Shown here one piece after another: positions 9,614-60,545 of a DNA stretch of 64,000 nucleotides. The notes beneath the pieces are model-generated. The model worked only from the letters and a program-made list of their open reading frames with translations, made no database searches and was not told where the DNA came from. The stretch comes from Acidobacteriota bacterium (lineage in GTDB: Bacteria; Acidobacteriota; Blastocatellia; UBA7656), in assembly GCA_040754075.1 (NCBI GenBank), contig JBFMDH010000001.1:166262-230261 (forward strand), in the 5' to 3' direction. The position numbers were made by a program, and so were the translations under genes. The stretch's first letter is position 1. The number at the start of each line of letters is the position of its first letter.

Positions 9614-9670
9614 AGCCCGTAGTCCGTAAGATGAAAAACGCTACGGGCTACGAACTACTGACTATGGACG
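9614..9670. repeat. short-period repeat hairpin directly downstream of the stop of the 9672-10478 gene
   Basis: agcccgtagtccgtaag ... gctacgggctacgaactactgactatggacg. agcccgtag pairs with ctacgggct. The right arm shows 7 nt periodicity (ctacggg ctacgaa ctactga ctatgga). The 15-mer agcccgtagtccgta recurs at 39651. Confidence 0.7.
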
Positions 9671-9671
9671 T

Positions 9672-10478
9672 TTAGTTCTTTAAATTTTGCTCCGCTTTCA
9701 ATTCTGCGCCATCAATTGCATCCAGATAGACCGTCCAGGATGGCGCATCGCCCAAAAGGATTTCCCAGGCGAGATGAATTTCCAGAGAATCCTTTTTAGC
9801 AACCGGCAATATAACCAATCCTTTGACGTGAACGTCTTTTAGATCATTAATGCGAAGTTGCTGGTCGTTGCCTGCCGCGTCCTTGTATGTGAACGTGCGA
9901 TTGACCAGTCGTTGTGCGGCTTCCTGGCGGTTAATCGTCGGGCTAAAGGGCAATTCGACAACCGGAATGAAACGGTCATCAAGTTGCAGCAAACGTCCGT
10001 CGTTATTGATAACCAGAGTGATTTCTCCGTATCCACCGGCGACCGGAAACGGAAAATCCGCCTGCTTGTAAGTCAAGCGATGGATGCCACCGGTATTATC
10101 GTTTTTGGTCAATGAGACCGTACCAGGTTGTGCACTTAACAACTCGCGCCATCGGTCAATAAAGCGCTTTGCCGCTTCACGAACCGGAACCGTTGTATCG
10201 CCCGTAAGCGGCGCATCGATGATTTTGATACCGCTTTCGATACCCGCAAGCGAGCGCGGCGTGTGGGTGATGGCATAAAATTGCGCCTCAGTCTCTTTCA
10301 AGTTGTACAATTCCAGCAACCGCCGCCACTCGCGTTCGGCTTGGACGAGACGTTGCGGAGAATCTTTAACGATTGCCGGATAATTTTTGGGCTTCGCACT
10401 CTTTGTTGTTTGAGCTGAAATGCTGCACCCTAACGCGCAAACAATTAAAATGGCGAGCAACGAACGAGATAAAATCAT
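9672..10478 (-). CDS. hypothetical lipoprotein / secreted protein
   Basis: Start chosen at the internal ATG giving MILSRSLLAILIVCALGCSISAQ (signal peptide with lipobox-like ALGC). No recognisable catalytic motif. Confidence 0.5.
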   Translation of the reverse strand: MILSRSLLAILIVCALGCSISAQTTKSAKPKNYPAIVKDSPQRLVQAEREWRRLLELYNLKETEAQFYAITHTPRSLAGIESGIKIIDAPLTGDTTVPVREAAKRFIDRWRELLSAQPGTVSLTKNDNTGGIHRLTYKQADFPFPVAGGYGEITLVINNDGRLLQLDDRFIPVVELPFSPTINRQEAAQRLVNRTFTYKDAAGNDQQLRINDLKDVHVKGLVILPVAKKDSLEIHLAWEILLGDAPSWTVYLDAIDGAELKAEQNLKN

Positions 10479-10884
10479 AATGAAATTACGCCCACACCGG
10501 GTGGGGATGTATAGCCGGGTGTACAACAGAAAAATCAAAAAAACAATTATTCATAATCATGGTGGGAAGTGGCAAGTGATGAAGCTAAATGTTGGTGAGC
10601 AAAATGCGCTGAAACGATTTATTTCAACGGGCGCTGAACCGGTTATTGGTAAAAAGCCGTTCTAATTCTCAATTCGGACAGCATCCCTTGAACTTTCGGG
10701 TGAACGCTATTTGCTCTCTCTCCGCCCAATCCGAGGATAAATTTTAACCTGTCGTTTACGGGCGCTTTAGATTTCGAGAGAAGACCAGAGGCTTTAAGCA
10801 GAGCGCAAGTTCTGCGTTGACCTGAGCGAATGGCAAAGCAACTTCTCAGTAACGGTTTGCGATTTGACATCGTTTCTTTTCAGT

Positions 10885-10913
10885 TTGACAATAAATTATG
10901 CGCAAAATAATAT
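10885..10913 (+). promoter_or_regulatory. sigma70-like promoter upstream of nuoA
   Basis: TTGACA (10885-10890), 17 nt spacer, TAATAT (10908-10913), about 48 nt upstream of the nuoA ATG. Confidence 0.5.
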
Positions 10914-10960
10914 GAGTGCGCTTTTAGTCACAATTCCAAATCAAAATTAAGGTTGAGCAA

Positions 10961-11380: not shown

Positions 11381-11549
11381 AATTGCGGATTGCGGATTGC
11401 CTGGATTTATAACTGGTTTTCACTTTCATGCCTAGATCACGGTTGCGCAGTAATAATGAAAGCCAGGAAAAAGAAATTGATTGATCTGCACACATCAAGC
11501 AAAGCAGAGATTTGAAAAAAGACAATCCGCATTTCGCAATCCGCAATTG
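11381..11549. repeat. inverted (ATTGCGG)n arrays enclosing a ~120 bp non-coding segment in the nuoA-nuoB spacer
   Basis: Left arm aattgcggattgcggattgcc (11381-11401). Right arm caatccgcatttcgcaatccgcaattg (11523-11549). Same repeat unit as 27362-27390 and 28280-28327. Confidence 0.8.
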
Positions 11550-11559
11550 AAAGGGTTTT

Positions 11560-12102
11560 ATGGCAAAAGAAGAAATTGTTGAATCTTCGAGCGGGATTAT
11601 TACTTCAACCGTTGATGCGGTGTTTAATTGGGCGCGCGCCTCGGCGCTCTGGCCGATGACCTTTGGGCTTGCCTGTTGCGCCATTGAGATGATGGCGACC
11701 GGCGCTTCACGTTTCGATTTAGACCGATTCGGAGCAGGGGTATTTCGTCCGAGTCCGCGTCAATCCGATTTGATGATTGTCGCAGGAACGCCGACACTCA
11801 AAATGGCACCGGTCATCAAGCGCGTCTGGGATCAGATGCCGGAACCGAAATGGTGCATTGCGATGGGCGCTTGTGCATCGACGGGCGGGCCGTTTCCGAC
11901 CTATTCGACCTTGCAAGGCGTTGACCGCATCGTTCCCGTCGATGTCTACATTCCGGGTTGTCCGCCGCGCCCCGAAGCTTTGATTTACGGCTTGATGCGT
12001 TTGCAGGACAAAATCATGCAGGAGCATCCGACGCGTTACGTTTTCTTTCAGGGCGATGTCAGCGAGGAAGAGGTCGAGGGCGCGGAAGCGGTGACCGCTT
12101 AA
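11560..12102 (+). CDS. nuoB: NADH-quinone oxidoreductase subunit B
   Basis: 180 aa. [26 protein letters not shown] and IPGCPPRPE are the N2 Fe-S cluster cysteine motifs. Confidence 0.95.
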
Positions 12103-12124
12103 CCAATTCGCAAATGAAAAGCTG

Positions 12125-12154
12125 GCGCAGGGGCTTGGTTCTCTGCGCTTTTTT
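12125..12154 (+). terminator. rho-independent terminator-like hairpin after nuoB
   Basis: gcgcagggg-cttggt-tctctgcgc stem (about 8-9 bp including G-U pairs) followed by tttttt. Lies 13 nt before the next start codon. Confidence 0.55.
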
Positions 12155-12166
12155 ATTGGGTAGAAG

Positions 12167-13306
12167 ATGAGCGACACAACCGCACTCGAAAAAAAAATAA
12201 TCGAACGCATCAACCGCGACGGCGCAATGAGCTTTCGCGATTTTATGCAACTGGCGCTTTATGATGCGGAACTTGGCTATTACAACACCGAGCGGTTGAA
12301 GATTGGCGCAACCGGTGATTATTACACCTCAAGCAATGTCCACCCGGCATTCGGCGCAATCCTCGCGCAAGTCTTCGTTCGGTTGTGGAAAGACCTCAGT
12401 AGTGACAACCCTGAAAATGCGAACAGCGAATATCTTGAGAGCGATACTGCCTCACCCTTGAACCTCGTTGAAATGGGCGCGGGAACCGGGCAACTGGCAT
12501 TCGATGTTTTAAGCGCCTTGCGTGATGAACACGCCGAAGGGTTTGCGCGCGCGAATTACACGATTATTGAACAAAGTCCGGTGATGCGCGCCAGACAACA
12601 GGAAAAGTTGAATGATTTCAGCGAGCGGGTTTGCTGGCAAACCTTTGCCGCGTTAAAGCCGACCGCCGGAATTTTCTTTTCCAATGAACTGGTTGATGCG
12701 ATGCCTGTGCATCGCTTGCGCTTTACCGGCGAAACCGTCGAAGAACTTTATGTAATCGTAGTTGACGAATCGCATCACCAACGTCTCGCCGTTGTCTGGG
12801 GCGCGCTTTCAAAACCGCAACTGGTTGAATATCTCAAACGTTCGCAGGCGAAATTTTTTCAAGGGCAAATGATCGAAGTCAATCTCGATGCCATTCACTG
12901 GTTGTGGGAAGTTTCCCGCGTGATGGAAAAAGGTTTTTTAGTGACCCTTGATTACGGCGACCTCGCGCCGCATCTCTATTCGGTTGAACGCCTGGAAGGC
13001 ACGCTCAGATGTTTTTACCGGCACACCTTGCGCGATAATCCGCTGGAACGTATTGGTGAACAAGACCTCACTGCCAGCGTCAATTTTTCGGCGCTGATTG
13101 ATTACGGGAAAGATTTCGGATTTGAACAGGTGAGTTACGAACGACAGACCAATTTTCTCTTTCGCAATGGGTTGATTGAACGCATCGCGGCAATGGAAAC
13201 GGGCGACACGATTGATGATTTACAGAAACGCCTGGCGATAAAAAATCTCTTTGTGCCCGGCGGCGTGAGCGATAATTTCCGCGTACTGGTTCAACGGAAA
13301 CCTTAG
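12167..13306 (+). CDS. SAM-dependent methyltransferase, MidA/NDUFAF7 (DUF185) family
   Basis: 379 aa. MSFRDFMQLALYDAELGYYN N-terminal family motif. VEMGAGTGQLAFDVL SAM-binding motif I. ELVDAMPVH. Confidence 0.8.
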   Translation: MSDTTALEKKIIERINRDGAMSFRDFMQLALYDAELGYYNTERLKIGATGDYYTSSNVHPAFGAILAQVFVRLWKDLSSDNPENANSEYLESDTASPLNLVEMGAGTGQLAFDVLSALRDEHAEGFARANYTIIEQSPVMRARQQEKLNDFSERVCWQTFAALKPTAGIFFSNELVDAMPVHRLRFTGETVEELYVIVVDESHHQRLAVVWGALSKPQLVEYLKRSQAKFFQGQMIEVNLDAIHWLWEVSRVMEKGFLVTLDYGDLAPHLYSVERLEGTLRCFYRHTLRDNPLERIGEQDLTASVNFSALIDYGKDFGFEQVSYERQTNFLFRNGLIERIAAMETGDTIDDLQKRLAIKNLFVPGGVSDNFRVLVQRKP

Positions 13307-13336: not shown

Positions 13337-14302
13337 TTATTGACTTCGGGTTTTCTTTTTTCGTTCGGCAGCCGACGTTCGTTTATTTTTGCTGAGAATT
13401 TCAGAAAGTCGCTTTTTCAGCACGTCGGCGCTTGGCATATCCAGTAACTCTACGCACAGTTGTTGAAGCAGGGCGGCATTTTGAATGCGTTTGATTTCGG
13501 CTGAAACATTGAGATTGGGAAAACGTTTGGCGACCATCATCGTGAGCGATTCAGCCGCACCTTTAATTTCGCCTCGTCGTTCGCCTTTCTTTTCACCTCG
13601 TTTTTCGCCTTTCCTTTCACCTTCCTGCAACACCAGTTGATAGAAACTCGATTCTTTTAATTGTTCAATGGGAATCATACCTTTCTCCACAATCAACGCT
13701 AACAGGTCTTCACGATTCTAGCGCAACCCGCCAAGCATCAAAAAGTGTACGCCTAAATCACCTTTTAGCCGTTCATCTTTCACGCCGCGCAAAGCTTTTG
13801 CAGCAGCCTGTAATTCTTTCTCTCCGCCTTTCATTAGAGGAATAAAGGGCAATAAATTTTGGCGTGGCATTGCCAGTACGCGATGCGCAGGAATTTCCCA
13901 CAATTTCACCAATTTGAAGGCAGATTTGATTTCCAACACACCTGCCTGAATCCTTCCTGAGTCGGGCAAATAACCGGGCAGACCTTTTGGCGTCAGCATT
14001 AACACATAACTGAAAATTGGCAGACGATATTTCATCCACAATCGCGCATCATATTCGGGCATTCGCGTCAATACATCATCATTCCATTGCGTCTGGGCTT
14101 CCGGGTGAACAATAAATTTGCCTTTCGCATTCGTCACGCGATAGGTCTGGTCGGTTAAAATCGTTGAAGCGCTTAACTCCAGCGGCAATTTTTCAATCAC
14201 CGCCCTTTCATTTGCCTTGAGATGTCCGAGCAAAATTAACAGCGATTTTGCATCTTGTTCCGCCAAATATTTAAATGCCTGGTCGTAAGGTTTGCTGCTC
14301 AT
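13337..14302 (-). pseudogene. Rpn-family PD-(D/E)XK nuclease / putative transposase with DUF4351-like C-terminus, copy 2 (in-frame TAG)
   Basis: ORFs 13718-14302 and 13337-13696 share a frame and are separated by a single TAG at 13718-13720 (GVHFLMLGGLR*NREDLLALIVEKGMIP). Copy 1 has Tyr at that position (GGLRYNRVRLLEMILEKGMIP). Confidence 0.7.
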
Positions 14303-25305: not shown

Positions 25306-25488
25306 ATCAGTGCCTCTTGAAATTAAATTTACCTGCAAATATAGAGCAACGATAAGGCAACCATTGTACCAGTTAAAAAAGCAGTGATGCCTGCGGAAAA
25401 ATAAGGACTTAATCACAGATGAGAGAGTTCGACTGTTGCAATAAAGCAACAACCGTGTGGTGAGCAGACACAAAAGGATTCGGAGGTA

Positions 25489-25537
25489 TTTTAACTTTTA
25501 ACTTTTGTCTTTTTAATTTTGCCTTTTAACTTTTCAT
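25489..25537. repeat. (TTTTAAC)-type heptamer array abutting the stop codon of the M20 peptidase gene
   Basis: ttttaac ttttaac ttttgtc tttttaa ttttgcc ttttaac ttttcat. Strict 7 nt phasing. A shorter related run lies at 49055-49091. Confidence 0.75.
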
Positions 25538-26950: not shown

Positions 26951-27361
26951 AATTTCTCCTTAAATAAATGGGATGAACACAAGCCAATTCCGAATCGGTC
27001 AAAAGAAGATAATTCGCCGATACAAAAAGGTCAAAGTGATGTGAGGTTTTCGCGGCATAAAATAAAAATGATTTAAAATGCCTGTAATAATTGAGGTTTT
27101 GCTGCCGAGTAAAAATGGCACACTCGTTGCTCTGGTTGAGTACGGAAGCTTGAGGCACTTGTTAAGGTGCTTTCTTACGGAGCCATCATGCGGAACCGGT
27201 GTTTGCACGAATGATTCGCACATTGCTCATCGCAATCGCGGCAGGAACCTCACCTCTTTGCGCGGATGAACAATAGTGCAACGTCTGTTGCAAAACCTAA
27301 CGAAGAAGAACCCTCTCTACTCTTTTAAGTTCCGGTACGACGCATGATGGCGCCGCTTTCT

Positions 27362-27390
27362 CAATTGCGGATTGCGGATTGCGGATTGCC
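27362..27390. repeat. (ATTGCGG)4 heptamer array, left arm flanking the GIY-YIG cassette
   Basis: caattgcggattgcggattgcggattgcc. Near-perfect inverted match to 28280-28313. Confidence 0.85.
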
Positions 27391-33619: not shown

Positions 33620-33641
33620 CCTTTAAAAACCTCAACTCCGG

Positions 33642-39652: not shown

Positions 39653-39657
39653 CCCGT

Positions 39658-48943: not shown

Positions 48944-49091
48944 AAGCTGACCTTGATAGCCGGCAGATTGATTTTTCGTATGCACATTACCGGGAAAAGA
49001 TTTTTGTAGCGAGCATTGACGATGAAATAACTTCACGAGGACTGATTAGCGCAGCACTTACTTTCTATTTTTAACTTTTAATTTTTCATTT

Positions 49092-52000
49092 ATGCCGGAA
49101 TATTCCTTTCGTCTGACAATTATTTTTCAGACTTTTGAAAATGACACTGAGCTTGCCGAAGCTCTTTTTTTTCCCGAAATCTCCCGATTTGGCGATAAAG
49201 CGAAAAAATTAGAGAACGCGGTTAAGGAAAATGTCGTGCGCCTTGTCGAAGAAGACGATGCGCTCGCGCTCTATCGTCGTCACTTTACGAGCGAGCCTGA
49301 ACTTGGTGAAGCGCGCGTCACCGTCAATCCGCCACCGAAATCCATCGCCTGGCAAAAGCCGATTGATCTTACTTTTCAAATCCTGCTCTTTACGCATGGC
49401 GAAGACCTGTACATCGCTCACCTTCCACAACTTGGTATCGAAATCATTGGCAGAAACCGGGAAGAACTTGAAGAGAAAATTCCCGCAGAAATTCACGCGC
49501 ATCTCTTACGCATCAAAAAAAATCGCTCACTTGGCGAATTGTTCTGGTTGCAACGCGCCAAAGCGATTCGCCTGGCGCGAACCACTTTTGACGCGACCAT
49601 TCGCACGCCGAAACAGATAGCCAAAAGTCAGTATGCCGCTGACGAAGAGAAAAAATCCGAGCTTGAAAAAGTGGCGACCGATTTAGTCAAAGAGCATTTA
49701 CCGGAGGCTTTTGAGATAGACGAAACCGTCACCCGCATTGCAGACGCGCTTGGCGGTCGCCATCCGCGCAGTGTTTTACTGGTCGGCAAATCGGGCGTCG
49801 GCAAAACCGCTGCGGTGTATGAACTGGTGCGCCGTCGCGCGGCGTTTCGTCTGAGTCGCACACCGTTTTACGCAACCAGCGGCTCGCGACTGGTTGCCGG
49901 CATGTCAGGTTTTGGCATGTGGCAGGAACGTTGCGGCAAAGTCTGGCGCGAGGCTGCAAAACAAAAAGCGATTCTGCATTTCGGCAATCTGCTCGAACTG
50001 ATGGAAGTTGGCAAAAGCACGGCGAACAATCAGGGTATCGCGTCATTCTTTCGCCCCTACATCAGTCGTGGCGATTTGCTCTGCATTGCCGAATGCGCGC
50101 CTGAACAATTGCCCATCATTGAACGCGAAGCGCCAAATCTGCTTGACGCTTTTTTGCAAATTAAAGTTGATGAACCGACAGTTGAACGCGGTTCGGCAAT
50201 TCTGCTGCATTATGCGATTGCGCAAAGCGGGCGCGAGTCGCCGGTTGACCTCGAAGCGATTGAAACGATTGATCGGTTGCATCGCCGCTATGCGACTTAT
50301 TCAGCCTATCCCGGTCGCCCTTTGCGGTTTTTGAAAAATTTATTGCAGGATCGCAAAGGCGGTTCCATCAATGCCGCGATGGTCACTGCGCGTTTTTCCG
50401 AAGAGACCGGTTTGCCGCTATTTTTACTGAACGATGACCTGCCGCTCGATTTAGCGGCGACGCAGAAATTTTTCAGTGAACGGGTCATCGGACAAGCGAG
50501 CGCCGTTGAGTTGGTGGTTAATTTACTGGCGACCGTCAAAGCGCGGCTCACGCGAGCCGGAAAACCGATTGCGTCGTTGATGTTCATCGGGCCCACCGGC
50601 GTTGGCAAAACCGAAATGGCAAAGGCGCTTGCCGAATTCTTATTTCAAAATCGCAATCGCCTGATTCGTTTCGATATGAGCGAATATGCCGATGTGAATT
50701 CCATCGGGCGACTGATTGGCGGCGCGTGGGGAAAAGAAGGCTTGCTTACCGCGAAGGTGCGCGAACAACCGTTTGCGGTGATTCTGCTTGATGAATTTGA
50801 GAAAGCCCATCCGTCATTTTTCGATTTGTTGTTGCAGGTTCTGGGCGAAGGTCGTTTGACCGATGCGATGGGGCGGGTTGCCGATTTTACCAACGCGGTG
50901 GTGATTATGACTTCCAATCTCGGCGCGGAAACTTATAAACGCAATGCGCTGGGGTTTCGTGACGCGACGGATGCCACTGCGCAGGCTCGCGAACATTTTA
51001 TGAAAGCGGTGCAGGCATTTGTGCGTCCCGAATTTTTCAACCGCATCGACCGTATCGTGCCGTTTACACCGCTTGATGAAGCGACCGTATTGAAAATTGC
51101 CCATCGTGAACTGCAACAGATTACGCGACGCGATGGCATTTTCTATCGCGGGGTTGAATTAAATATTACCGAGCAGGTGGCTGAGCGATTGGCGCGAATC
51201 GGCTACGATGCGCGGTATGGGGCGCGACCTCTGAAACGCGCCATCGAACGAGAATTGCTGGTGCCGATTTCCGAAGCGTTGAATTTGCAAACCCTCGATG
51301 TCGGTTTACAGGCGGAGGTGACTGTCGAAGGCGATGAATTGAGTGTAGCGGTGCGCCTTAAAACCGATGAAGCCGGGCGCGTGATTTCCAAATCGTCGAA
51401 GAGCGCGCCGTTTGCCGAACTGGTAAAACAGGCGGCGAAACTCCGCCGCGATGCGCAGAACCTGCGTGGCAGTATCTTTGTTCAGGAGATTCAAAACGAA
51501 ATATTCAACCTTGAACGACTGGCGATGCGGCTTGCGAAAAATAAAACAAAAAATAAATGGCAAGACCCGGCGCAAGCTACAAGCCTTGCGCGGTTGCCCG
51601 ATTTGAAAAATAAATTACAGGCGCTTGAGGTATTCGTCACCCAAACGGCGCAATTTGAAGACGCCGTGTTGTTCTGTTTTTACGGCAAGGAGACCGGCGA
51701 TAAAAACGGTTTGCAGGCGCAACTTGCCGGGATGCAAAAACAGTGGACGGCGCGGTTGTTGGAAATTTACGGATTGCAATTTAAAAAGCCGGATGCGGTG
51801 ACGGTGGCGCTCTATTCGGAAAATGCCAACTGGTTATTTGAACTGGCGCGTGCCTATTTTGAAATCGCGAAACAAATCATGGCGAACGTCGAGGTTGTGG
51901 AATTTGCGGTGCCGTCGCATCAGGAAAGCGAAGCGATAAAGCTTCGCGTCAAAGCCGGTGAAAAAGTTGAGGTTTTTAATTTGCTGGGGCGCGTGACCAT

Positions 52001-52394
52001 TAAACGCCAGGTGAAAAAGCCGGAGGAATTTTTATCCGCGCCGAACGCGCAAACCGTTGGTATCGTGTTGGGCATAGCGGGTGAAATGGTGTTTCCGAGA
52101 TTTGAACCCGAACATGATTTGCACGCCATGACGGTTGCCAAACAAACCCATAACTGTTTGGTACATACCAGTGAAGCGCGCCTCGAAGATTACCTGCCGG
52201 TGAAAGAATTGGATAAACGCGGCAGCATCAAGCATCAGGACGCGCGACGCCTTTATAACCGCGACGACAGCTCGGTTGAAGATTTGTCGCTTGAAGAGAA
52301 ATTTTACTTAGACCGTGATAATTTAGTTGCGGTTGTGCATCAGGCGATTGAACGCCGCTTGCTCAAAAGCGCGCAAGGATTGCTGGATGAATGA
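49092..52394 (+). CDS. atypical ClpA/ClpC-like double-AAA+ ATPase with novel N-domain and C-terminal release-factor-like module (paralogue 1)
   Basis: 1100 aa.
- NBD1: Walker A GKSGVGKT; Walker B position reads AILHFGNLLEL (no acidic pair).
- NBD2: GPTGVGKT, ILLDEFEKAH, TSNLG, GARPLKRAIEREL.
- LGF at aa 620-622, at the ClpA IGL-loop position.
- C-terminal aa ~775-1100 aligns with RF1/RF2 motifs (see findings). Confidence 0.85.
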   Translation: MPEYSFRLTIIFQTFENDTELAEALFFPEISRFGDKAKKLENAVKENVVRLVEEDDALALYRRHFTSEPELGEARVTVNPPPKSIAWQKPIDLTFQILLFTHGEDLYIAHLPQLGIEIIGRNREELEEKIPAEIHAHLLRIKKNRSLGELFWLQRAKAIRLARTTFDATIRTPKQIAKSQYAADEEKKSELEKVATDLVKEHLPEAFEIDETVTRIADALGGRHPRSVLLVGKSGVGKTAAVYELVRRRAAFRLSRTPFYATSGSRLVAGMSGFGMWQERCGKVWREAAKQKAILHFGNLLELMEVGKSTANNQGIASFFRPYISRGDLLCIAECAPEQLPIIEREAPNLLDAFLQIKVDEPTVERGSAILLHYAIAQSGRESPVDLEAIETIDRLHRRYATYSAYPGRPLRFLKNLLQDRKGGSINAAMVTARFSEETGLPLFLLNDDLPLDLAATQKFFSERVIGQASAVELVVNLLATVKARLTRAGKPIASLMFIGPTGVGKTEMAKALAEFLFQNRNRLIRFDMSEYADVNSIGRLIGGAWGKEGLLTAKVREQPFAVILLDEFEKAHPSFFDLLLQVLGEGRLTDAMGRVADFTNAVVIMTSNLGAETYKRNALGFRDATDATAQAREHFMKAVQAFVRPEFFNRIDRIVPFTPLDEATVLKIAHRELQQITRRDGIFYRGVELNITEQVAERLARIGYDARYGARPLKRAIERELLVPISEALNLQTLDVGLQAEVTVEGDELSVAVRLKTDEAGRVISKSSKSAPFAELVKQAAKLRRDAQNLRGSIFVQEIQNEIFNLERLAMRLAKNKTKNKWQDPAQATSLARLPDLKNKLQALEVFVTQTAQFEDAVLFCFYGKETGDKNGLQAQLAGMQKQWTARLLEIYGLQFKKPDAVTVALYSENANWLFELARAYFEIAKQIMANVEVVEFAVPSHQESEAIKLRVKAGEKVEVFNLLGRVTIKRQVKKPEEFLSAPNAQTVGIVLGIAGEMVFPRFEPEHDLHAMTVAKQTHNCLVHTSEARLEDYLPVKELDKRGSIKHQDARRLYNRDDSSVEDLSLEEKFYLDRDNLVAVVHQAIERRLLKSAQGLLDE

Positions 52395-52550: not shown

Positions 52551-55500
52551 GTGAACATAACGCTTCCGATTTACATTCAAAAACCTGCGCCGCAAGACAC
52601 CTTGCCGCCGACGCATATTCTGCGCCCGCTGTTTTTCCCCTATATCGAAGTGCAGGGCGAAGACCTCAATCGCGCCGTCACCAAGCTGGCGCAAAAGATT
52701 CGCCACGAGTGTGACCGACTCGGTAAGGCGATGCGTCACGACCAACTTTCAAAATTTGGTTTCGCGCCTGACCTCGAAGACCGCTTTTTGAAACTCACGC
52801 TCGACCTCGGCAGTCGAAAAGCCGAGTGCAATTTTCTATTTGTCGTCATGCAAACGGTGGGGCGCAAAATTGCTTTTACTCCGGCGCTTGCCGATTTATG
52901 GTTTGAGATTCATCGCGGCGAAACCTTAGTCAACCGCGCCACCGAAGTTCTGTCGCATTACTTTCGCCAGAAACAGAAACGCGAAGGCAACGATGCCCTG
53001 AGACCCGAAGCCTTTTCGGTCAGCGGTAAAGCCTGGGTAACGACGCTCGACATCAGCATCAATCCACCGGCGCGCGCGCCCAAGCTTGTGCAAAATCTCT
53101 TTGCCCTGCTTGGCGAAGCGCCGCAGATGGATGGCGCGGAAGAACTCAATCGCGTCGGGCGATGCCTCGATTATCTTTACCCGGACGATTTGCAGCGGGT
53201 GATTTTTCGGGAGACGGAAACTGAAGCCTTGACCGCGATTTTGAAATCGCAGGACAAACGCCCGGTGCTGTTAATCGGCGAACGCCTGGTCGGAAAGACG
53301 GCGATCATTCACGAATATGTGCATCGCGCTGTGAGCCAACGTCACTCGAAATTCGACGCGAAAAATCAAGTGTGGTTGATTGCGCCGCAACGGTTGATTT
53401 CGGGAATGTCTTACGTCGGGCAGTGGGAAAACCGTCTGCTGGCGATTTTGAAAGTTGCGAAAAAAAAGCAACACATTCTCTACTTCGATGATTTGCTCGG
53501 ACTCTATCAAGCCGGGCAGAGCGCCAGTTCTTCTCTAAGCGTTGCCGATGTTTTAAAACCTTATGTAGAAAAACGCGAAGTGCGCATCCTTGGCGAAATC
53601 ACTCCCGAAGCCTTTCGGGTATTTCAGGAACGCGACCGCGGCTTTGCCGATTCCTTTCATCTGTTGCCGGTCAAAGAACCCGATGAAGATAAAACCTTTC
53701 GCATTCTTCTGCATTTGATGCGCGAGCTTGAGCGCAAACATCGCGCCACTTTTTCTACGGATGTTTTTCCGACAGTGATGGATGTGCAGCGACGCTACAC
53801 ACGCGATGCGGTGTTCCCCGGCAAGGCGGCGATTTTCCTGCAACAACTCGCCGTCAAATATCGCCACGAGCGCGTCACCCGCGATGAAGTATTACAGGAG
53901 TTTCACGCGAAAAGCGGTTTCAGCTTGAATTTTTTGAATGATGAAAACAAACTCACACGGCAAGAGGTAATCGAAGCGGTCGGCAATACGGTCATCGGGC
54001 AGGAGGCGGCGCTTGCTGCCTGTGCGGATGTGGTGTCGATGGCAAAGGCGCGGCTCAATGACCCAGACCGCCCGCTCGCGTCGTTTCTGTTTTTAGGACC
54101 CACAGGGGTTGGCAAAACCCAATGCGCGAAATCGCTTGCGGCATATCTGTACGGCGATGGCGATAAACTTATTCGTTTCGATATGAATGAATATTCGTCG
54201 CCCTATGCGGTGGCAAGACTGGTCGGCACATTCCATCAACCCGAAGGATTGCTCACCAGCGCCGCGCGGCGGCAACCGTTTTCGGTAGTGTTGTTTGATG
54301 AAATCGAAAAGGCGCACCCGGATGTTTTCAATCTTTTATTGCAGGTAATGGGTGACGGGCGGCTTACGGATGCGCTCGGACGAACGGTCGATTTTACCAA
54401 CGCGATGGTCATTTTAACCTCGAACCTCGGCGTCAAAGAGGCTGCGAAAAATCTGGGCTTTCATCGTGACAGAGAACGCGATGGGCAGGTTTATACGCAA
54501 GCCGCCGAGAAATTTTTCAAGCCGGAATTTTTCAATCGCCTCGACCGCATCGTGCCGTTTGCAAGGCTCGGACGCGAAGAGGTGATGCAGATTGCCGAAG
54601 GGTTGATTCAACAGGTTTTTGCGCGTGAAGGATTGGTGCGCCGCAAATGTATTTTACAGGTGGATGAACGGGCAATGGCGCGCATTGTTGAGGAAGGTTA
54701 TCACCCACAACTCGGAGCGCGCGCCCTGAAACGCCTGCTTGAACGCGAGTTGACCCAACCGGTGGCAAGACAACTTGCGACTCTTAAACCCGATGCGCCC
54801 ACGCTCATTAAAGTTTATCCGGCGGCAAGTGAGCTAAAAGTTACGGTCGATTCATTGAAAGGCGCAACGTTGAATGATGAGAGCGCAAGGTTGATTGAAG
54901 GGGTTGCGCCAAAACAGATTGTTGAGCTTGCGGAAGCCGCAGTTGACCGCATTGAATCGCAGGCGGCAAAGATGAGTCCGCAAGGGCTGATCAATCCCGA
55001 TGCCGTGGATGCTACACAACTCGCCTATTTTCAAATTCGCGAACAGGCGCGCCGGGCGCGTGAACTTTGTGAAAAGGTCGCGGCAAAAATCAAACCAACC
55101 GGAAAGCCACTGGTGTCGCGTTCACGCGGTCGCAGCATTGCGGCTTCGCAATTCACTTTGCGTCAGGTAAGCGTCGGAGATTTATGGCAACGATTGATTG
55201 AAGCGGGTGATGTGCGTCAGTTGATGCGCGAACTGCTAACCACTGCCCAACCCTATGGTGAACGCCTCGAAGATTACCTTTCAGAGTTAACGCGCGAGAC
55301 CGCCTTGCTTGAGGTGATTGCGCAAAGCAACGATGAGGTTTCAACCCATCAGGCATTGATGTTGATTCAATCGCTGGACGAAGCCTTTAAAGTCGAGCGT
55401 GAACGGCTGGCAAAAATTTATCACGAACTCTTTACCTATAAACTGGGAAGCCGCGCAGAGTTATTGACCGGCAATCAGGAGGCGGCGGCTTTGCACAGCG

Positions 55501-55877
55501 ATGCCGTGTTGATTCAAGGCGTAAATGTGTTGGCGCTGGCTAAACCCGAAACCGGCGCTCACCTGTTTTACACGGCTAAAGAACAACTCGTGCCGTTGCA
55601 AATTCACGTCTTGCCGGTAATTGACCATTCCGCAGCCGCGACGATTCGCCGGTTTGCTGAAAGTCAGAAGAGGCGATTAAGCGAGCCGGTCGATACCAAC
55701 GAAACCGATTTAAACGAGGCATCGGTTATTCGGGTTTATGAAGAGAACGGCGCGACGCTTGATTTACGCTCAGGACTGATGACGCTCAAGATGCCGACGA
55801 CGAAAGAACTGCGCGCCTTGTTACTTGCGGCTTTGCCATTGCCAATGGAGATGCAATCGGTAGTCGGTAGCCGGTAG
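52551..55877 (+). CDS. atypical ClpA/ClpC-like double-AAA+ ATPase with novel N-domain and C-terminal release-factor-like module (paralogue 2)
   Basis: 1108 aa, GTG start.
- NBD1: GERLVGKT; Walker B ILYFDDLL.
- NBD2: GPTGVGKT, VLFDEIEKAH, TSNLG, GARALKRLLEREL.
- LGF at aa 635-637.
- C-terminal aa ~785-1108 is RF-like (ETGAHLF, IRVYEENGATLDLRSG). Confidence 0.85.
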   Translation: MNITLPIYIQKPAPQDTLPPTHILRPLFFPYIEVQGEDLNRAVTKLAQKIRHECDRLGKAMRHDQLSKFGFAPDLEDRFLKLTLDLGSRKAECNFLFVVMQTVGRKIAFTPALADLWFEIHRGETLVNRATEVLSHYFRQKQKREGNDALRPEAFSVSGKAWVTTLDISINPPARAPKLVQNLFALLGEAPQMDGAEELNRVGRCLDYLYPDDLQRVIFRETETEALTAILKSQDKRPVLLIGERLVGKTAIIHEYVHRAVSQRHSKFDAKNQVWLIAPQRLISGMSYVGQWENRLLAILKVAKKKQHILYFDDLLGLYQAGQSASSSLSVADVLKPYVEKREVRILGEITPEAFRVFQERDRGFADSFHLLPVKEPDEDKTFRILLHLMRELERKHRATFSTDVFPTVMDVQRRYTRDAVFPGKAAIFLQQLAVKYRHERVTRDEVLQEFHAKSGFSLNFLNDENKLTRQEVIEAVGNTVIGQEAALAACADVVSMAKARLNDPDRPLASFLFLGPTGVGKTQCAKSLAAYLYGDGDKLIRFDMNEYSSPYAVARLVGTFHQPEGLLTSAARRQPFSVVLFDEIEKAHPDVFNLLLQVMGDGRLTDALGRTVDFTNAMVILTSNLGVKEAAKNLGFHRDRERDGQVYTQAAEKFFKPEFFNRLDRIVPFARLGREEVMQIAEGLIQQVFAREGLVRRKCILQVDERAMARIVEEGYHPQLGARALKRLLERELTQPVARQLATLKPDAPTLIKVYPAASELKVTVDSLKGATLNDESARLIEGVAPKQIVELAEAAVDRIESQAAKMSPQGLINPDAVDATQLAYFQIREQARRARELCEKVAAKIKPTGKPLVSRSRGRSIAASQFTLRQVSVGDLWQRLIEAGDVRQLMRELLTTAQPYGERLEDYLSELTRETALLEVIAQSNDEVSTHQALMLIQSLDEAFKVERERLAKIYHELFTYKLGSRAELLTGNQEAAALHSDAVLIQGVNVLALAKPETGAHLFYTAKEQLVPLQIHVLPVIDHSAAATIRRFAESQKRRLSEPVDTNETDLNEASVIRVYEENGATLDLRSGLMTLKMPTTKELRALLLAALPLPMEMQSVVGSR

Positions 55878-55885
55878 CCGGTTAT
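55858..55885. repeat. (CGGTAGC)-type heptamer array overlapping the last codons and stop of AAA+ paralogue 2
   Basis: cggtagt cggtagc cggtagc cggttat. Encodes ...SVVGSR*. Confidence 0.75.
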
Positions 55886-56643: not shown

Positions 56644-58950
56644 ATGCCGAGTTTTCGTTTTCCAATTTTAATCTGGGAAGACCACGAAGGATATTTTACC
56701 GCGTGTCCGGTCGAGGGTTTTTATAACACTTTTGCGGGAATAGGTCGCAGTGCCAGTGAAGCGGTTTTTCAATTGAAAGAATTTCTCGCTTATCACTACG
56801 AGAAAAACCCCTGGGCAGCGCCGCCCGATTTTCACGACGCCAAACTCATCGAATTTCGCGCTGATGTGCGCCCGGAATATCGCATTGAAGAAATTGTCGG
56901 CGACCGCAAACAAAAAAATATTTACCCGACCGAAGAAACCCTCGCCTTGCGTTTTGCCTGTGTACACGGCAAACAGCAAGCCGGATTGCTCATCTGTGTG
57001 CTGCCGCTTTTCGGCATACAATTTTATTACTACGATGAAAAGAAACTGAAAGAACTGGCGGTCACCTATGTGCAGGAGAGTTTCAAAGGTCTTGCCCCAC
57101 AACAACTCACAAGATTCTTACCGCCTAAAAATTATCGACTTGATGAAATCGTCATCAATGTTTCACGCAAAGAAACCAGATACGAATACCAACCCTCGCT
57201 TGACACCTTGAACGAAATTGCCGAACCCCTCGGCGACAAACGATTGCGCAGACAATTTTCCGCCGCCTGGGAGCGTGACACGGAAGTTAGAGACCTCGCC
57301 CAGCGCATCGGCAAAGAGAAAGCCAACGTCATCATCGTCGGCGACAGCGGCATCGGTAAAACCACTTTGCTGGTGAACGCGGTGCGTGAAGTTGAACAGC
57401 ATATGATTGCGGGCGATGACGAAGAAAACGCCGGGCGCAAAGCCAGACACCGATTTTATTTGACCAGCGGCGCGCGCATCATCGCAGGGATGCGCTATCT
57501 CGGTCAGTGGGAAGAGCGGGTTGAATCGCTCATTGATGAGCTTGCGGAAATCAATGGCGTGTTATGCGTCGGCAGCATTTTGGACTTAATCCTTGCAGGC
57601 GGTGAAGTGAGCGCCAGCATCGCGGCATTTTTACAGCCCTTTCTGCAACGCGGCGAATTGCAACTCGTAGGCGAAGCGACGCCCACCGAACTCGATGCCT
57701 GCCGAAGATTATTGCCGGGATTTGCCAGCCTGTTTCAAATTCTCAATCTGCAACCGTTCAATCGCGCCCAGGCGATTGCGATTTTGCAACGCGCTTCGGA
57801 AACTTATCAGCGCAATTATCGCATTGAGGCGGCAAGCATCCTGCCGGAACTCGTCTATCGTTTGTTCAATCGCTTCTCGCCTTATCAGGCATTCCCCGGA
57901 AAAGCCATTGCCTTTCTGCATTCGGCATTTGAACGCGCCGAACTTGAACATAAAACGGCAATCACCGGCGAAGACCTGATTCAAAAGTTTGTGCGGCAGA
58001 CCGGACTCCCCGAACTTTTTTTACGCGATGAATTGCCGCTCAACCAGTATGACATCGTTGAATTTTTTGAACAGCAGGTCATCGGGCAACGCGCCGCCTG
58101 TGAAGTTGCGGCAAATCTGGTGACTACATTCAAAGCCGGGTTGAACGACCCGCAACGCCCGATTGGGGTGTTGCTGTTTTGCGGGCCGACCGGGGTTGGC
58201 AAAACCCAACTCGCAAAAGCGATTTCGGAATACCTGTTCGGACAAGGCGAAGAACGCAACCGCTTAATCCGGCTCGATATGAGCGAATATGGCGATTTCG
58301 GCGCGGCAGAACGTTTGATTACCAAGCCCAATGGCGAGCCGAGCGATTTGATTCAGCGGGTACGCCAGCAACCATTCGTTGTGGTGTTGTTCGATGAAAT
58401 CGAAAAAGCCGACGTAGCGGTTTTCGATGCGTTGCTCAGTGTTTTCGATGAAGGGCGCATCACCGACCGTTACGGGCGAACCACTTCATTTCGCAGCGCC
58501 ATCATTATCGCGACGTCGAACATCGGCGCAGATAAAACCGCGAGCATCGGATTCGATGGTCACAATGTGCGCGGTTTTGCCGCGGAGGTGATGACTTTCT
58601 TTCGCCCGGAATTTTTTAATCGCCTGGATGCGGTTGTCGGTTTTCGCGCGCTCGACGAAGAAGCGATTCTCAACGTAACGCGCAAAGAATTAGCTGAGAT
58701 TGCCAAACGCGAAGGGATAAACGCCTCGAATACCAGATTAATTTGGACAGAACGATTAATTGAATATATGGCGAAAGCCGGTTATGACGCGCGATATGGC
58801 GCGCGCCCTTTGCAACGCACCATTGAACAGATGATCGTTGCGCCGCTTTCGCGATTCCTGCTTGAACACCTGATGAGCAAAGGCAAAACCATTCAAGCCG
58901 ATTTCCTCAATGGCGAAATCCGTTTTTCAACTACGGAACATACGGAATAG
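56644..58950 (+). CDS. atypical ClpA/ClpC-like double-AAA+ ATPase with novel N-domain, no C-terminal extension (paralogue 3)
   Basis: 768 aa.
- NBD1: GDSGIGKT; Walker B position reads GVLCVGSILDL.
- NBD2: GPTGVGKT, VLFDEIEKAD, TSNIG, GARPLQRTIEQ.
- IGF at aa 635-637. Confidence 0.85.
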   Translation: MPSFRFPILIWEDHEGYFTACPVEGFYNTFAGIGRSASEAVFQLKEFLAYHYEKNPWAAPPDFHDAKLIEFRADVRPEYRIEEIVGDRKQKNIYPTEETLALRFACVHGKQQAGLLICVLPLFGIQFYYYDEKKLKELAVTYVQESFKGLAPQQLTRFLPPKNYRLDEIVINVSRKETRYEYQPSLDTLNEIAEPLGDKRLRRQFSAAWERDTEVRDLAQRIGKEKANVIIVGDSGIGKTTLLVNAVREVEQHMIAGDDEENAGRKARHRFYLTSGARIIAGMRYLGQWEERVESLIDELAEINGVLCVGSILDLILAGGEVSASIAAFLQPFLQRGELQLVGEATPTELDACRRLLPGFASLFQILNLQPFNRAQAIAILQRASETYQRNYRIEAASILPELVYRLFNRFSPYQAFPGKAIAFLHSAFERAELEHKTAITGEDLIQKFVRQTGLPELFLRDELPLNQYDIVEFFEQQVIGQRAACEVAANLVTTFKAGLNDPQRPIGVLLFCGPTGVGKTQLAKAISEYLFGQGEERNRLIRLDMSEYGDFGAAERLITKPNGEPSDLIQRVRQQPFVVVLFDEIEKADVAVFDALLSVFDEGRITDRYGRTTSFRSAIIIATSNIGADKTASIGFDGHNVRGFAAEVMTFFRPEFFNRLDAVVGFRALDEEAILNVTRKELAEIAKREGINASNTRLIWTERLIEYMAKAGYDARYGARPLQRTIEQMIVAPLSRFLLEHLMSKGKTIQADFLNGEIRFSTTEHTE

Positions 58951-59094
58951 AGAGCACGGAACAACCGGAAGGATATTTATCAAATCAAGTTCCGGCACAT
59001 CTTCTTTTTAACGATTACCAGCGATGAGTAAAACAATTTCCAATCTTCATTTGATTTTTTTTCGTTTGTTCCGTTATTTCCGTTTGTTCCGTAC
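58931..59094. repeat. inverted ACGGAAC/GTTCCGT-rich short-period arrays after AAA+ paralogue 3 (overlaps its stop codon)
   Basis: ctacggaacatacggaatagagagcacggaacaaccggaagg (58931-58972) and ttcgtttgttccgttatttccgtttgttccgtac (59060-59094). The period is looser (7-10 nt). Confidence 0.65.
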
Positions 59095-59163
59095 TCCTGG
59101 TTTTAATATTTCTGTTGCAGTTTGCGTTGTGCTCATCATTGGTTTGAAGGGAAAATAGTTGCT

Positions 59164-60423
59164 ATGGATAAATTCAGAATTATCGGTGGGCGTCCGCTTG
59201 AAGGTCGCGTGGCAATCAGCGGGGCGAAAAATTCGGCGTTGCCGTGTATGGCTGCGGCTCTGCTCACGGCTGAAAATGTCACGCTTCATAATCTGCCGTA
59301 TGTGCGCGACATCATCACCATGCGGCGATTGCTCGAAGATTTAGGGTGCACGGCATTGATGCCCGAACTGCGCACCCTGAAAATCAATGCCTCAAAGGTC
59401 GAACTCTTTGAAGCGCCTTATGAACTGGTGAAAACCATGCGCGCATCGGTGCTGGCGTTGGGTCCACTGCTGGCGCGATTTGGCGAAGCGCGGGTGAGTT
59501 TGCCCGGTGGTTGCGCGATTGGACAACGCCCGATTGATTTGCATCTCGCGGGCTTTGAAAAACTCGGCGCAGTCGTATCGCTCGAAGGCGGCGACGTGGT
59601 GGCGCGCGCTGAAAGGCTTCGCGGCGCAGAAATTGATTTTGATACGGTGACCGTCACCGGCACGGAAAATTTAATGATGGCGGCGGCGCTCGCCGAAGGC
59701 GAAACCATTTTAAACAATGCAGCGCGTGAGCCTGAGATCGTTGACCTCGCGGAACTCCTGAACAAAATGGGCGCGCGTATCGAAGGCGCGGGTCGCAGTT
59801 CGATGCGCATTCAAGGCGTGAAAACTTTGGGCGGCGCGGAACACACGATTATTCCCGATAGAATCGAAGCCGGTACATTTATCGCAGCGGCGGCGATAAC
59901 CGGCGGCGAACTCGAAATCACCAACTGCAATCCGCAACACATTCACGCCGTCATCTATAAATTGCGCGATACCGGCGTCGTCATCGAAGAAACCAATGCC
60001 TTTTCGCTGAGAGTCAAAGCAGCTCAGCTTTTGCGACATTCGGATGTGACGACGCTGGCGCACCCCGGTTTTCCAACCGACATGCAGGCGCAGTACATGG
60101 CATTGATGACGCTTGCAGAAGGGACGAGTGTGATTACCGAAACCATTTTTGAAAATCGCTTTATGCATGCGTCGGAGTTACTCAGAATGGGCGCGAAGAT
60201 TAAAATCAGCGGGCGGCAGGCGATTGTCGAAGGCAACGAAAAATTGACGGGCGCGAAAATGCAGGCGTCGGATTTGCGGGCGTCGGCGTCATTGGTGATT
60301 GCCGCGCTTGCGGCAGAAGGCGAATCCATCATTGACCGCGTCTATCACATCGACCGGGGCTATGAAAAAATCGAAGAGAAATTACGCGCTGTCGGCGGAC
60401 GAATCGAACGCTTCAGGAGTTAG
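59164..60423 (+). CDS. murA: UDP-N-acetylglucosamine 1-carboxyvinyltransferase
   Basis: MDKFRIIGGRPLEGRVAISGAKNSALP. PGGCAIGQRPIDLH (active-site Cys loop). Start at the ATG at 59164. Confidence 0.95.
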   Translation: MDKFRIIGGRPLEGRVAISGAKNSALPCMAAALLTAENVTLHNLPYVRDIITMRRLLEDLGCTALMPELRTLKINASKVELFEAPYELVKTMRASVLALGPLLARFGEARVSLPGGCAIGQRPIDLHLAGFEKLGAVVSLEGGDVVARAERLRGAEIDFDTVTVTGTENLMMAAALAEGETILNNAAREPEIVDLAELLNKMGARIEGAGRSSMRIQGVKTLGGAEHTIIPDRIEAGTFIAAAAITGGELEITNCNPQHIHAVIYKLRDTGVVIEETNAFSLRVKAAQLLRHSDVTTLAHPGFPTDMQAQYMALMTLAEGTSVITETIFENRFMHASELLRMGAKIKISGRQAIVEGNEKLTGAKMQASDLRASASLVIAALAAEGESIIDRVYHIDRGYEKIEEKLRAVGGRIERFRS

Positions 60424-60429
60424 AAAAAT

Positions 60430-60545
60430 AGTCGGCAACCGGCAACAGGCGATAGGCAGTTAAAACGCCAAATAAATCCTTTTCCTTTGAAAAATCTTTA
60501 TAAACTGAATTTTTACTGTCTGCTGTCTACTGCCTACTGCCTACT
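60430..60545. repeat. inverted GGCA/CTGCCTA-type heptamer arrays after murA (same family as 1658-2152)
   Basis: agtcggcaaccggcaacaggcgataggcag (60430-60459) ... ctgtctgctgtctactgcctactgcctact (60516-60545) followed by tttgttt. ctactgcctactgcctact is identical to 2134-2152. Confidence 0.75.

Follow-up and report, generated by a model that had tools for sequence, protein, structure and literature searches.

The window examined here is the whole 64,000-nucleotide (nt) stretch of contig JBFMDH010000001.1 from an Acidobacteriota bacterium of the Blastocatellia (assembly GCA_040754075.1, positions 166,262 to 230,261, forward strand), and its intergenic spacers carry a family of short tandem arrays. 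These arrays are heptanucleotide simple-sequence repeats of the kind described as STRR sequences (short tandemly repeated repetitive) and heptameric long simple-sequence repeats (LSSRs), and most of them are the two arms of an intercistronic hairpin cassette. A cassette starts with a G-rich array at or near the stop codon of a co-directional gene, continues through a loop that is either short or carries cargo, and closes with a complementary C-rich array before the next gene; the cargo, where there is one, is typically a gene of the TIGR02436/PF05635 family. We hold with about even confidence that the arrays are slippage-driven stems of cassettes resembling the intervening sequences (IVSs) of 23S rRNA, placed in intercistronic RNA and probably serving as RNase III-type processing or stability sites. 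Under such a model, arrays would grow and shrink in 7-nt steps by replication slippage, and units would drift while being homogenized within an array and between arms; position and period would persist as the unit turns over. In a transcript reading through from the upstream gene the arms would pair into a duplex of 15-37 bp, which, by analogy with the IVSs of 23S rRNA that bear an open reading frame (ORF), could act as a double-strand-specific processing or stability site. Cutting at the duplex would separate or differentially stabilize the flanking cistrons and free the cargo mRNA, and hairpins that contain no ORF would be the same element minus its cargo.

Heptanucleotide arrays are anchored on the stop codons of upstream genes

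In an offset scan of the window, period 7 alone among periods 4 to 12 gave strong arrays, eight in number, and 20 shuffles of the window gave none at that period. Tandem Repeats Finder (TRF) reported period-7 arrays at nearly all the positions where a sequence-only reading of this DNA had listed eleven 7-nt arrays of one architecture, and the repeats can also be read directly in the sequence. The listed loci are real and anchored, but the list needed correction in its details. The array at 58931-59094 has a period of about 9 rather than 7, consisting of ACGGAAC cores with 2-nt spacers (offset 9 scores 10 against 4 at offset 7, and TRF gives period 9). TRF makes no call at 9614-9670, where the heptamers form a degenerate hairpin whose fold nevertheless has z = -5.6. 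An array that had been missed, ATTTTTA x3.6 at 49067-49091, terminates at the start codon at 49092. The arms in the window comprise at least eight different heptamer units, with AGGCAGT (three sites), ATTGCGG (four arrays) and CCGTAG (three sites) as recurrent families; by direct reading, 28 nt that include an irregular unit are identical between the arm region at 11523-11548 and 28287-28314. All window spacers of at least 25 nt were surveyed one by one. Of the 29 co-directional spacers, 12 scored highest at period 7; so did one of the 8 divergent spacers, a case depending on a doubtful 73-aa ORF, but none of the 7 convergent ones. Throughout the window, arrays are restricted to spacers or overlap at most the last 20 nt of an ORF.

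Searches against Pfam and NCBIfam bore out the gene names assigned by the sequence-only reading (asd, nuoA, M20, serS, VWA, M16, purB, the ClpA/B-like AAA+ genes and murA). Its central claim, that every array abuts or overlaps the stop codon of the gene transcribed into it, also stands: at all 11 listed loci the array starts 0-7 nt from the upstream stop codon or overlaps it. The stop lies inside or touches the array at six loci (asd, serS, VWA_b, purB and both AAA+ genes), and elsewhere the gap is 0-3 nt (M20), 3 nt (nuoA), 6 nt (the gene at 9672), 7 nt (M16) and 6 nt (murA). Even the four long spacers (171-209 nt) have their first arm starting 0-6 nt past the stop, which would rarely be expected under uniform placement. 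What had been overlooked about placement is the gene bracketed by the arrays at 1658 and 2123 and the abutment of arrays on downstream start codons. The far arm usually terminates 5-25 nt before the next start codon, and the spacer is occupied at both ends.

Among all called genes in the window, TAG is the stop codon in 7 of the 11 that adjoin an array and in 11 of the 50 others (Fisher p = 0.011), and three ORFs (purB and two AAA+ genes) end at a TAG that the array itself supplies. For gene callers this means that the stop codons of housekeeping genes can lie within hypermutable repeats. We considered the provision of stops in three frames by the array as the cause of both anchoring and arm polarity and rejected it as a general explanation. 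With 24 of 63 frames closed by 5' arms and 17 by 3' arms, we do not regard 5' arms as closing frames more often, and at the metagenomic loci described below all three frames are closed by 15 of 43 upstream arrays and by 15 of 37 downstream arrays.

Arrays bracket a four-helix-bundle gene in a fixed orientation

The array pair at 1658-1691 and 2122-2152 brackets a 119-aa gene (1729-2088, minus strand) situated between asd and lysC. Its product matches Pfam (E 1e-40), NCBIfam NF008911 (150 bits, cutoff 137), TIGR02436 and the structure of Xanthomonas XCC0516 (PDB 2GSC, E 4e-28). The family, PF05635/TIGR02436, is that of the four-helix-bundle "23S rRNA intervening sequence protein" (IVP) and shares homology with Avd, an accessory protein that belongs to diversity-generating retroelements; its structure has been solved, and it has more than 8000 database clusters at E <= 1e-5. 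The arms around the gene measure 31-37 nt, are 86-87% complementary and lie 405-432 nt apart. Two alignments are possible, 1659-1689 with 2122-2152 (31 nt, 87% complementary) and 1670-1706 with 2112-2148 (37 nt, 86% complementary, 405 nt apart).

We compared this locus with 80 metagenomic loci that encode relatives 56-73% identical, counting an array if it lay within 150 nt of the gene. These loci contain 146 arrays at period 7 and 0-8 at periods 5, 6 and 8-10. Both flanks were available for 69 genes, of which 57 are flanked by an array on one side or more and 27 on each side. An array is present in 92 of 149 cargo flanking zones, whereas the other spacers of those contigs carry one in 9 of 90 cases (odds ratio 14.5, p = 2e-16). 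Orientation is fixed, with CAGT and never ACTG in upstream arrays, and the reverse in downstream arrays. In 39 of 43 cassettes the upstream ORF is co-directional, and relative to the outer edge of the 5' arm its end falls anywhere from 25 nt inside to 31 nt short of it. The idea that arrays lie solely between co-directional genes, although true in the window, was dropped because only this upstream neighbor is consistently co-directional; the downstream neighbor is convergent in 24 of the 39 metagenomic cassettes that have one. In the closest relatives the asd-IVP-lysC cassette is kept with the same unit, and a single compensatory change is seen in the inner, unique stretch of the stem (TTTTG/CAAAA in locus L188, TTCTG/CAGAA in L190).

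The association extends beyond the Acidobacteriota. All eight four-helix-bundle genes inspected on plasmids from cultured cyanobacteria are flanked by heptamer arrays, the carriers being Nostoc, Anabaena 90, Calothrix, Trichormus, Scytonema and Pseudanabaena. In Xanthomonas, the XCC0516 homologue sits between accB and accC; on one side GGGAATC repeats begin about 5 nt past the accB stop, and on the other xATTCCC repeats extend into the accC ATG. A metagenome-assembled genome (MAG) of the Phycisphaerae has a bracketed IVP gene between brxC and pglX, with the window unit TAGGCAG, and this unit flanks 71-82% identical cargo proteins in the Acidobacteriota and the Phycisphaerae MAG. The coupling of heptamer arrays to TIGR02436 genes in a fixed orientation across at least four phyla makes two vague puzzles experimentally approachable.

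Such findings might also be expected if the arrays were DNA-level elements, that is, terminal inverted arrays or protein-binding sites through which the pentameric four-helix-bundle cargo protein mobilizes, maintains or regulates the cassette, comparable to RAYT transposases on repetitive extragenic palindromes (REPs). Arms and cargo evidently travel together, as the shared TAGGCAG unit in two phyla indicates; one imperfect 28-nt arm recurs unchanged at two loci of the window, complementarity is strand-symmetric, and Avd binds nucleic acid and reverse transcriptase. We nevertheless consider this account unlikely. No catalytic activity is known for the cargo protein, target-site duplications were not observed, and the asd-IVP-lysC cassette is vertically stable and not recently mobile. 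Most window hairpins, moreover, are distant from any copy of the cargo gene, and the polarity of the arms follows transcription.

The four-helix-bundle gene was also encountered in defense loci, between cas6 and cas4 on two cyanobacterial plasmids (L162, Anabaena sp. 90 pANA02, and L168) and within a BREX locus between brxC and pglX (L178-L187, the Phycisphaerae MAG). At further metagenomic loci (L081, L083, L105; L091, L101, L112, L113; L098, L109; also L140 and L141) the cassette lies inside an ORF for a pglX/type IIG-like N6-methyltransferase of up to at least 1512 aa, and in L105 it falls between motif I and the Eco57I domain. The host frame is free of stops across arrays and cargo gene in 9 of 9 in-ORF loci, as against 5 of 142 alternative frames of the remaining cassettes, and the cargo is encoded in another frame. 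These in-ORF cassettes could be read-through insertions, true intervening sequences or phase switches operated by 7-nt slippage.

More broadly, it is possible, though we hold it only tentatively, that a single IVS-like family spans the Acidobacteriota, Cyanobacteriota, Xanthomonadaceae and Planctomycetota, and that the Avd-like cargo protein recognizes, maintains or generates the arrays. STRR sequences, GGGAATC repeats and ORF-bearing IVSs would then be one system, tolerated in operons and pglX-type ORFs through RNA excision or through an open frame with a slippage switch.

Hairpins persist at orthologous junctions while their units turn over

The closest relatives of the M16 peptidase come from Blastocatellia/Acidobacteriota MAGs, at 86% and then 70-79% identity; everything else is at most 52% identical. 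Period-7 arrays number 14 in 123 kb of Blastocatellia loci versus 11 in about 1.2 Mb of the other 73 loci. Synteny of the window with seven relatives (L001-L007) is good. The spacer between the M16 peptidase gene and the MBL gene contains a heptamer hairpin in six of eight genomes (the window and five of seven relatives), built from ATGAGTG in the window, GTATGAA in L001, GTCCTTA in L002 and L003, GGTCATT in L004 and GTCCTTY/GTCACTY in L006. The purB-purS spacer contains one in six of seven genomes (the window, L001 and L003-L006), and that of L007 has a non-heptamer hairpin together with two heptamer units. Units of the purB-purS 3' arm differ by 1-2 substitutions (GACTCCA, GACTTCT, GACTACT, GGCTACT, GACCACT, GACCCCT, AACCAGT), and the arms are still complementary; in L006 the array runs straight into the purS ATG. 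Because orthologous junctions keep their hairpins, we take these to be old residents that evolve in concert with their arms complementary. The adjacent purS-purQ spacer has a conserved sequence that contains no heptamers, indicating that heptamer hairpins are not a general property of spacers.

The proposal of the sequence-only reading that the unit varies while period and position are conserved thus holds both within the window and in the comparison of orthologous spacers across related genomes. Its suggestion of a common generating mechanism also gains support, as near-identical loci differ in copy number by exactly 14 nt (L166 vs L167; L178 vs L185). Cargo-less copies persist for long at the same operon junctions, and the phenomenon now extends to the Acidobacteriota, a dominant and poorly studied soil phylum.

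The window derives from a MAG, and repeats are hard to assemble, so artefacts of assembly or sequencing were considered. However, independent MAGs produced by different studies show this architecture too, and it recurs in finished plasmids of Nostoc, Anabaena, Calothrix and Trichormus and in a 5.09-Mb Xanthomonas chromosome. Its presence in finished genomes of cultured organisms effectively excludes an artefact.

The hairpin at serS carries a different ORF in its loop. This ORF (27493-28116, 207 aa) encodes the motif GIYLF...YLIYMAG...RLKEH, and the orthologous spacer in L001 lacks it. All 17 of its homologues are proteins from Acidobacteriota or metagenomes and occur in gene contexts that are unrelated; none of the five other contexts examined has heptamer flanks. 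The whole cassette formed by the ATTGCGG arms and this ORF is present in the window and absent from L001, in which homology restarts exactly at the 3' arm; the site has no flanking direct duplication, and L001 has 126 nt of unrelated sequence there. These data suggest that the 207-aa ORF is a mobile gene, which probably represents a secondary insertion into an existing hairpin and is not part of the repeat family. Its candidacy as a second regular cargo was rejected, since its homologues elsewhere have no flanking heptamers. Another instance of foreign DNA within a hairpin loop was seen in L003 (11290-11410), where the loop of the M16-MBL hairpin has an insertion of about 300 nt that includes a near-perfect hairpin of about 120 nt and resembles a miniature inverted-repeat transposable element (MITE).

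Arm polarity follows transcription

The sequence-only reading had described most arrays as inverted pairs able to form long hairpins, and this was confirmed at seven or eight window loci. In addition to the pair around the cargo gene, inverted partners were found at 27352-27389/28286-28323 (38 nt, 84% complementary), 36430-36459/36465-36494 (fold -46 kcal/mol, z = -11.7), 9598-9622/9641-9665, 11381-11400/11529-11548 and 58952-58970/59078-59096. The description fails at 25489-25537, 55858-55885 and the GACTCCA run at 39682-39713, which are single direct arrays with no inverted partner. Folding gave a mixed outcome: several regions are stable, with 36430-36501 the strongest, but 33620-33722 folds weakly (z = -1.3) and 25474-25537 has no structure (z = +1.6).

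Followed in the direction of transcription, 17 of 19 hairpins from the window and its relatives open with the G-rich arm (p = 7e-4). At the IVP loci, arrays upstream of the gene are G-rich in 48 of 50 cases, and those downstream of it are C-rich in 46 of 48. Within the window, arm polarity flips with the strand of the genes although GC skew keeps its sign, and the polarity therefore follows transcription rather than the replication strand. This compositional polarity is the only strand-specific signal that the hairpins display.

Several observations weigh against the reading of the arrays as IVS-like processing or stability sites. The hairpin at 33620-33722 is weak, and 25489-25537, 49067-49091 and 55858-55885 are single direct runs with neither partner nor structure; on the Pseudanabaena galeata plasmid (L168) the arrays at the cargo gene are likewise direct, not inverted (AAAAGCT x14, AAAAGCC x9). 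Mismatches in 21 stems show no excess of G:U over A:C (21 vs 17), and sense and antisense folds are equally stable, the sense fold being the better in 10 of 22 regions. The RNA-level role that the sequence-only reading had proposed thus drew no support from these comparisons, polarity apart. With neither G:U bias nor an advantage of the sense strand, copying at the DNA level, not selection on RNA, could keep the arms paired. Wobble asymmetry had seemed a possible proof of RNA-level selection on account of three sense-strand G:U pairs in the 36430 hairpin, and was discarded because it is not general. As the stem mismatches lack this bias, function is only inferred, and cleavage of the stems by RNase III would be expected by analogy only. 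Finally, the cargo gene occurs at only one of about 12 window loci; tblastn found no cargo-gene remnants in other window loops, and the loop at 60461-60513 is unrelated to the cargo cassette. The notion of the same element without cargo is consequently based on shared period, position, polarity and one unit family, from which we infer that cargo-bearing and cargo-less hairpins are one kind of element.

Many of the same observations would be explained if the arrays were neutral or selfish slippage products, seeded by a polymerase-related bias toward 7-nt slippage, made and held complementary by intrastrand template switching and limited in growth only by coding and start-codon constraints, so that they would come to lie against stop codons by default. 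An excess of heptamers in many genomes has been credited to polymerase slippage (Mrazek 2007, as reported in PMC4679880), and stems without G:U bias, quick unit turnover, copy number polymorphic in 7-nt steps, whole spacers filled by arrays and the unstructured state of some of them all fit this account. It explains much but remains the less probable one in our judgment. The hairpin is retained in the same spacers among genomes whose proteins are only 70-86% identical; a strong G-first polarity is unexpected from a strand-neutral process; and anchoring is kept in long spacers with room elsewhere. Nor does slippage explain the tight, oriented link to one gene family or the compensatory change in the unique part of the stem.

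A third account is translational coupling or masking, in which the 3' arm hides the downstream start codon and a ribosome terminating beside the 5' arm melts the stem. In many cases 0-7 nt separate the stop from the beginning of the 5' arm and 0-12 nt separate the end of the 3' arm from the start, the L006 array reaches the purS ATG directly, and a loose test found a Shine-Dalgarno-like 4-mer upstream of the longest-ORF start in only 20 of 61 window genes; the same role has been proposed in the literature for STRR and TAACTGA repeats. Coupling nonetheless appears quite unlikely as the general role. The 24 metagenomic cassettes with a convergent downstream neighbor have no start codon to control, in the long-loop pairs (murA, HIT) a distance of 25-56 nt separates the start from the 3' arm, and single direct arrays are incapable of masking.

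Stable stems directly behind genes might also be transcription terminators or attenuators, a role that the sequence-only reading had suggested while noting that the arrays depart from the classic terminator pattern. The latter judgment was correct. T-rich runs follow a few arrays (60545 CTTTTGTTTG; 59096), but most have none, and loops range from 12 to 900 nt, whereas an intrinsic terminator has a G+C-rich stem, a loop of 3-8 nt and a T-run directly 3' of it. A consensus scan picked up one array, 55860-55885, weakly; overall, promoter and terminator matches equaled the shuffled expectation, leaving these scans uninformative except at site 12124. Hairpins lie inside the co-expression operons nuoA-nuoB, purB-purS and Xanthomonas accB-accC, none of the 7 convergent spacers of the window carries one, and a canonical terminator of another form exists at 12124-12149. 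Termination is accordingly very improbable as the role of the arrays.

Relation to known repeats and intervening sequences

The sequence-only reading had presented the arrays as a new pattern, distinct from REPs and from bacterial interspersed mosaic elements (BIMEs). The distinction from REP/BIME is sound, as the arms are tandem heptamers of at least eight units and not one conserved palindrome; novelty, by contrast, does not hold, since arrays of this kind are already known and match STRR sequences, the GGGAATC repeats of Xanthomonas and the general heptamer excess. The REP/BIME sequences of enterobacteria and pseudomonads are extragenic, located just after stop codons, able to form hairpins, dispersed in many copies and known for effects on the stability of upstream mRNA. 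REPs are imperfect palindromes of 20-40 nt with one conserved sequence per genome and are linked to RAYT, whereas the arms described here are tandem short units linked to a four-helix-bundle protein.

Like STRR sequences, the window arrays have 7-nt units, several unit families per genome, intergenic positions and frequent inverted-pair hairpins. STRR sequences have reportedly been catalogued since the work of Mazel et al. in 1990, and heptameric LSSRs since 2007. The unit TTGGTCA (33642-33662) is presumably identical to STRR2. The host differs, being a Blastocatellia-like member of the Acidobacteriota with 50% G+C and not a heterocystous cyanobacterium, and we therefore place the arrays in the broader heptameric-LSSR kind and not among STRR sequences in the strict sense. 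They share with LSSRs at least about three head-to-tail copies, the excess at period 7 and whole-unit copy changes among relatives. In heterocystous cyanobacteria, STRR hairpins occur between co-transcribed genes such as hupS and hupL, and roles in stability or translational coupling have been proposed (PMC2670836). Heptamers are an over-represented, intergenic class of long simple-sequence repeats (Mrazek 2007, as reported in PMC4679880). STRR and LSSR heptamers have been used for strain fingerprinting, and their origin and function are called unknown in the literature (PMC2670836 and the available passages of PMC4692102).

The GGGAATC repeats of Xanthomonas lie a mean of 28 nt from the upstream ORF's 3' end, nearer to it than to the next ORF, mostly between ORFs of the same direction and in inverted pairs; different species keep the locus but vary in its length and sequence (available passages of PMC4692102). 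That work and its treatment of Nostoc GGGGAYT, in the same passages, are centered on the G-quadruplex potential of one unit (Rehm et al. 2015, PMC4692102). The window arrays, unlike GGGAATC, combine many units, mostly not prone to form G-quadruplexes, in one architecture. The bracketing of the XCC0516 homologue by the accB-accC pair of GGGAATC repeats is not discussed in the available passages of PMC4692102. The TAACTGA repeats of Beggiatoaceae, cyanobacteria and Bacteroidetes are heptamer arrays in spacers, often a few nt from a start codon (MacGregor 2015, PMC4679880), and at these loci canonical ribosome-binding sites are scarce, the phylogenetic distribution is patchy and strains differ by indels in 7-nt steps (PMC4679880). 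They are mostly direct repeats of one unit upstream of starts, whereas the window arrays have many units, are mostly inverted and are anchored on stops.

The cargo cassette resembles the ORF-bearing 23S rRNA IVSs of Leptospira and Coxiella in having a PF05635 gene in the loop, a stem of similar length (about 28 bp there, 31-37 bp here), an overall size of about 430-500 nt and a position within a host gene's transcript. As a class, IVSs are removed from the rRNA precursor by RNase III, and the ends are not rejoined. That of Coxiella measures 428 nt, with an S23p ORF in its loop and a 28-bp terminal stem that is cut by RNase III (PMC4990558). The window cassette differs in occupying an mRNA spacer, asd-lysC (some metagenomic ones lie in protein ORFs), instead of 23S rRNA helix 9, 25 or 45, and its stems are tandem heptamers. 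Being outside rRNA, it is not a member of the rRNA IVSs and could at most work in an IVS-like way.

In the literature searched, which excluded most subscription journals, we found no report of heptamer repeats of this kind in Acidobacteriota and no work mentioning the IVS/four-helix-bundle protein together with heptamer repeats or STRR sequences. Relative to that literature the host phylum, the transcription-linked polarity and the coupling to TIGR02436 are new, with only absence of evidence as the measure.

Individual loci and other features of the window

The minus-strand loci begin with the cargo cassette, whose 5' arm, (AGGCAGT)n at 2122-2152, overlaps the asd stop codon (2151-2153); the same unit occupies the same site in L188 and L190-L193. 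Its 3' arm (1658-1706) consists of (ACTGCCT)n and an inner unique complementary stretch, and ends 5 nt before the lysC start at 1652. The degenerate CCGTAG-type hairpin at 9598-9665 (-27.8 kcal/mol) fills the 84-nt spacer between the stop of the gene at 9672 and the start at 9587. A single direct array, (GTTAAAA)n at 25489-25537, touches the stop of the M20 peptidase gene and is unstructured. At serS, the 5' arm (28280-28327, ATTGCGG-type) begins at the stop codon and the 3' arm (27352-27389, CAATCCG-type) is followed directly by the restart of homology to L001; the 207-aa ORF between them has a weak GIY-YIG signature (Pfam E 0.035, below cutoff). The imperfect hairpin GTCATTx/TGACCAx at 33640-33721 fills the VWA-VWA spacer and overlaps the upstream stop codon (33717-33719).

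On the plus strand, the nuoA-nuoB spacer has a 5' arm (ATTGCGG)n at 11381-11400, 3 nt after the nuoA stop, and a 3' arm (CAATCCG)n at 11523-11548, 11 nt before the nuoB start. Of all the hairpins the strongest is (ATGAGTG)4/(CTCATTA)4 at 36430-36501, with a gap of 7 nt to the M16 stop on one side and of 8 nt to the following start codon on the other. At 39645-39713, (CCGTAGT)n holding the purB stop is followed by a 12-bp hairpin and then by (GACTCCA)4.6, which ends 9 nt before the purS start. The (ATTTTTA)3.6 array at 49067-49091 precedes the first AAA+ gene. In the (CGGTAGY)3.6 array at 55858-55885 (z = -3.2) an AAA+ ORF reads 2.5 units in, to an in-frame TAG at 55875-55877, and at 58931-59096 the first arm of the ACGGAAC-core pair holds the AAA+ stop codon (58948-58950). 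An ORF-less hairpin, ..AGGCAGT/ACTGCCT.. at 60430-60545, starts 6 nt after the murA stop, has a 68-nt unrelated loop and belongs to the unit family of the cargo cassette.

The AAA+ genes are ClpA/ClpB-like paralogues in tandem (49092-52394, 52551-55877 and 56644-58950, plus strand; 768-1108 aa), far under equivalog cutoffs. Two of the three end inside repeat arrays, and the second is separated from the third by a 218-aa ORF that matches no family. A textbook intrinsic terminator at 12124-12159 (plus strand), a 10-bp G+C-rich stem followed by TTTTTTATT, separates nuoB (11560-12102) from the ORF at 12167-13306, a position that is unexpected if the nuo genes form one operon. Rfam at gathering thresholds recognized no rRNA or other RNA family in the window, and ARAGORN found no tRNA there. 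The purS-downstream spacer at 39969-40119 and the corresponding spacers between purS and the next gene in L001 and L003-L007 share a conserved block, GTGAGAYAATAGCGCTTACCGAA..., with no heptamers, which may be a purine-operon leader or a riboswitch unrecognized by Rfam at those thresholds. About 210 nt upstream of a 74-aa ORF (26999-27223) are likewise conserved: window positions 27151-27360 (minus strand) are non-coding and 80% identical to L001 3701-3925, and this block, with no Rfam match, could be a leader or a small RNA. Other tandem repeats, at 13560-13622, 23605-23665 and 61086-61137, have units of 24, 24 and 26 nt in 2-2.6 copies and are unrelated to the heptamer family; the two with 24-nt units fall within ORF coordinates and would give in-frame protein repeats.

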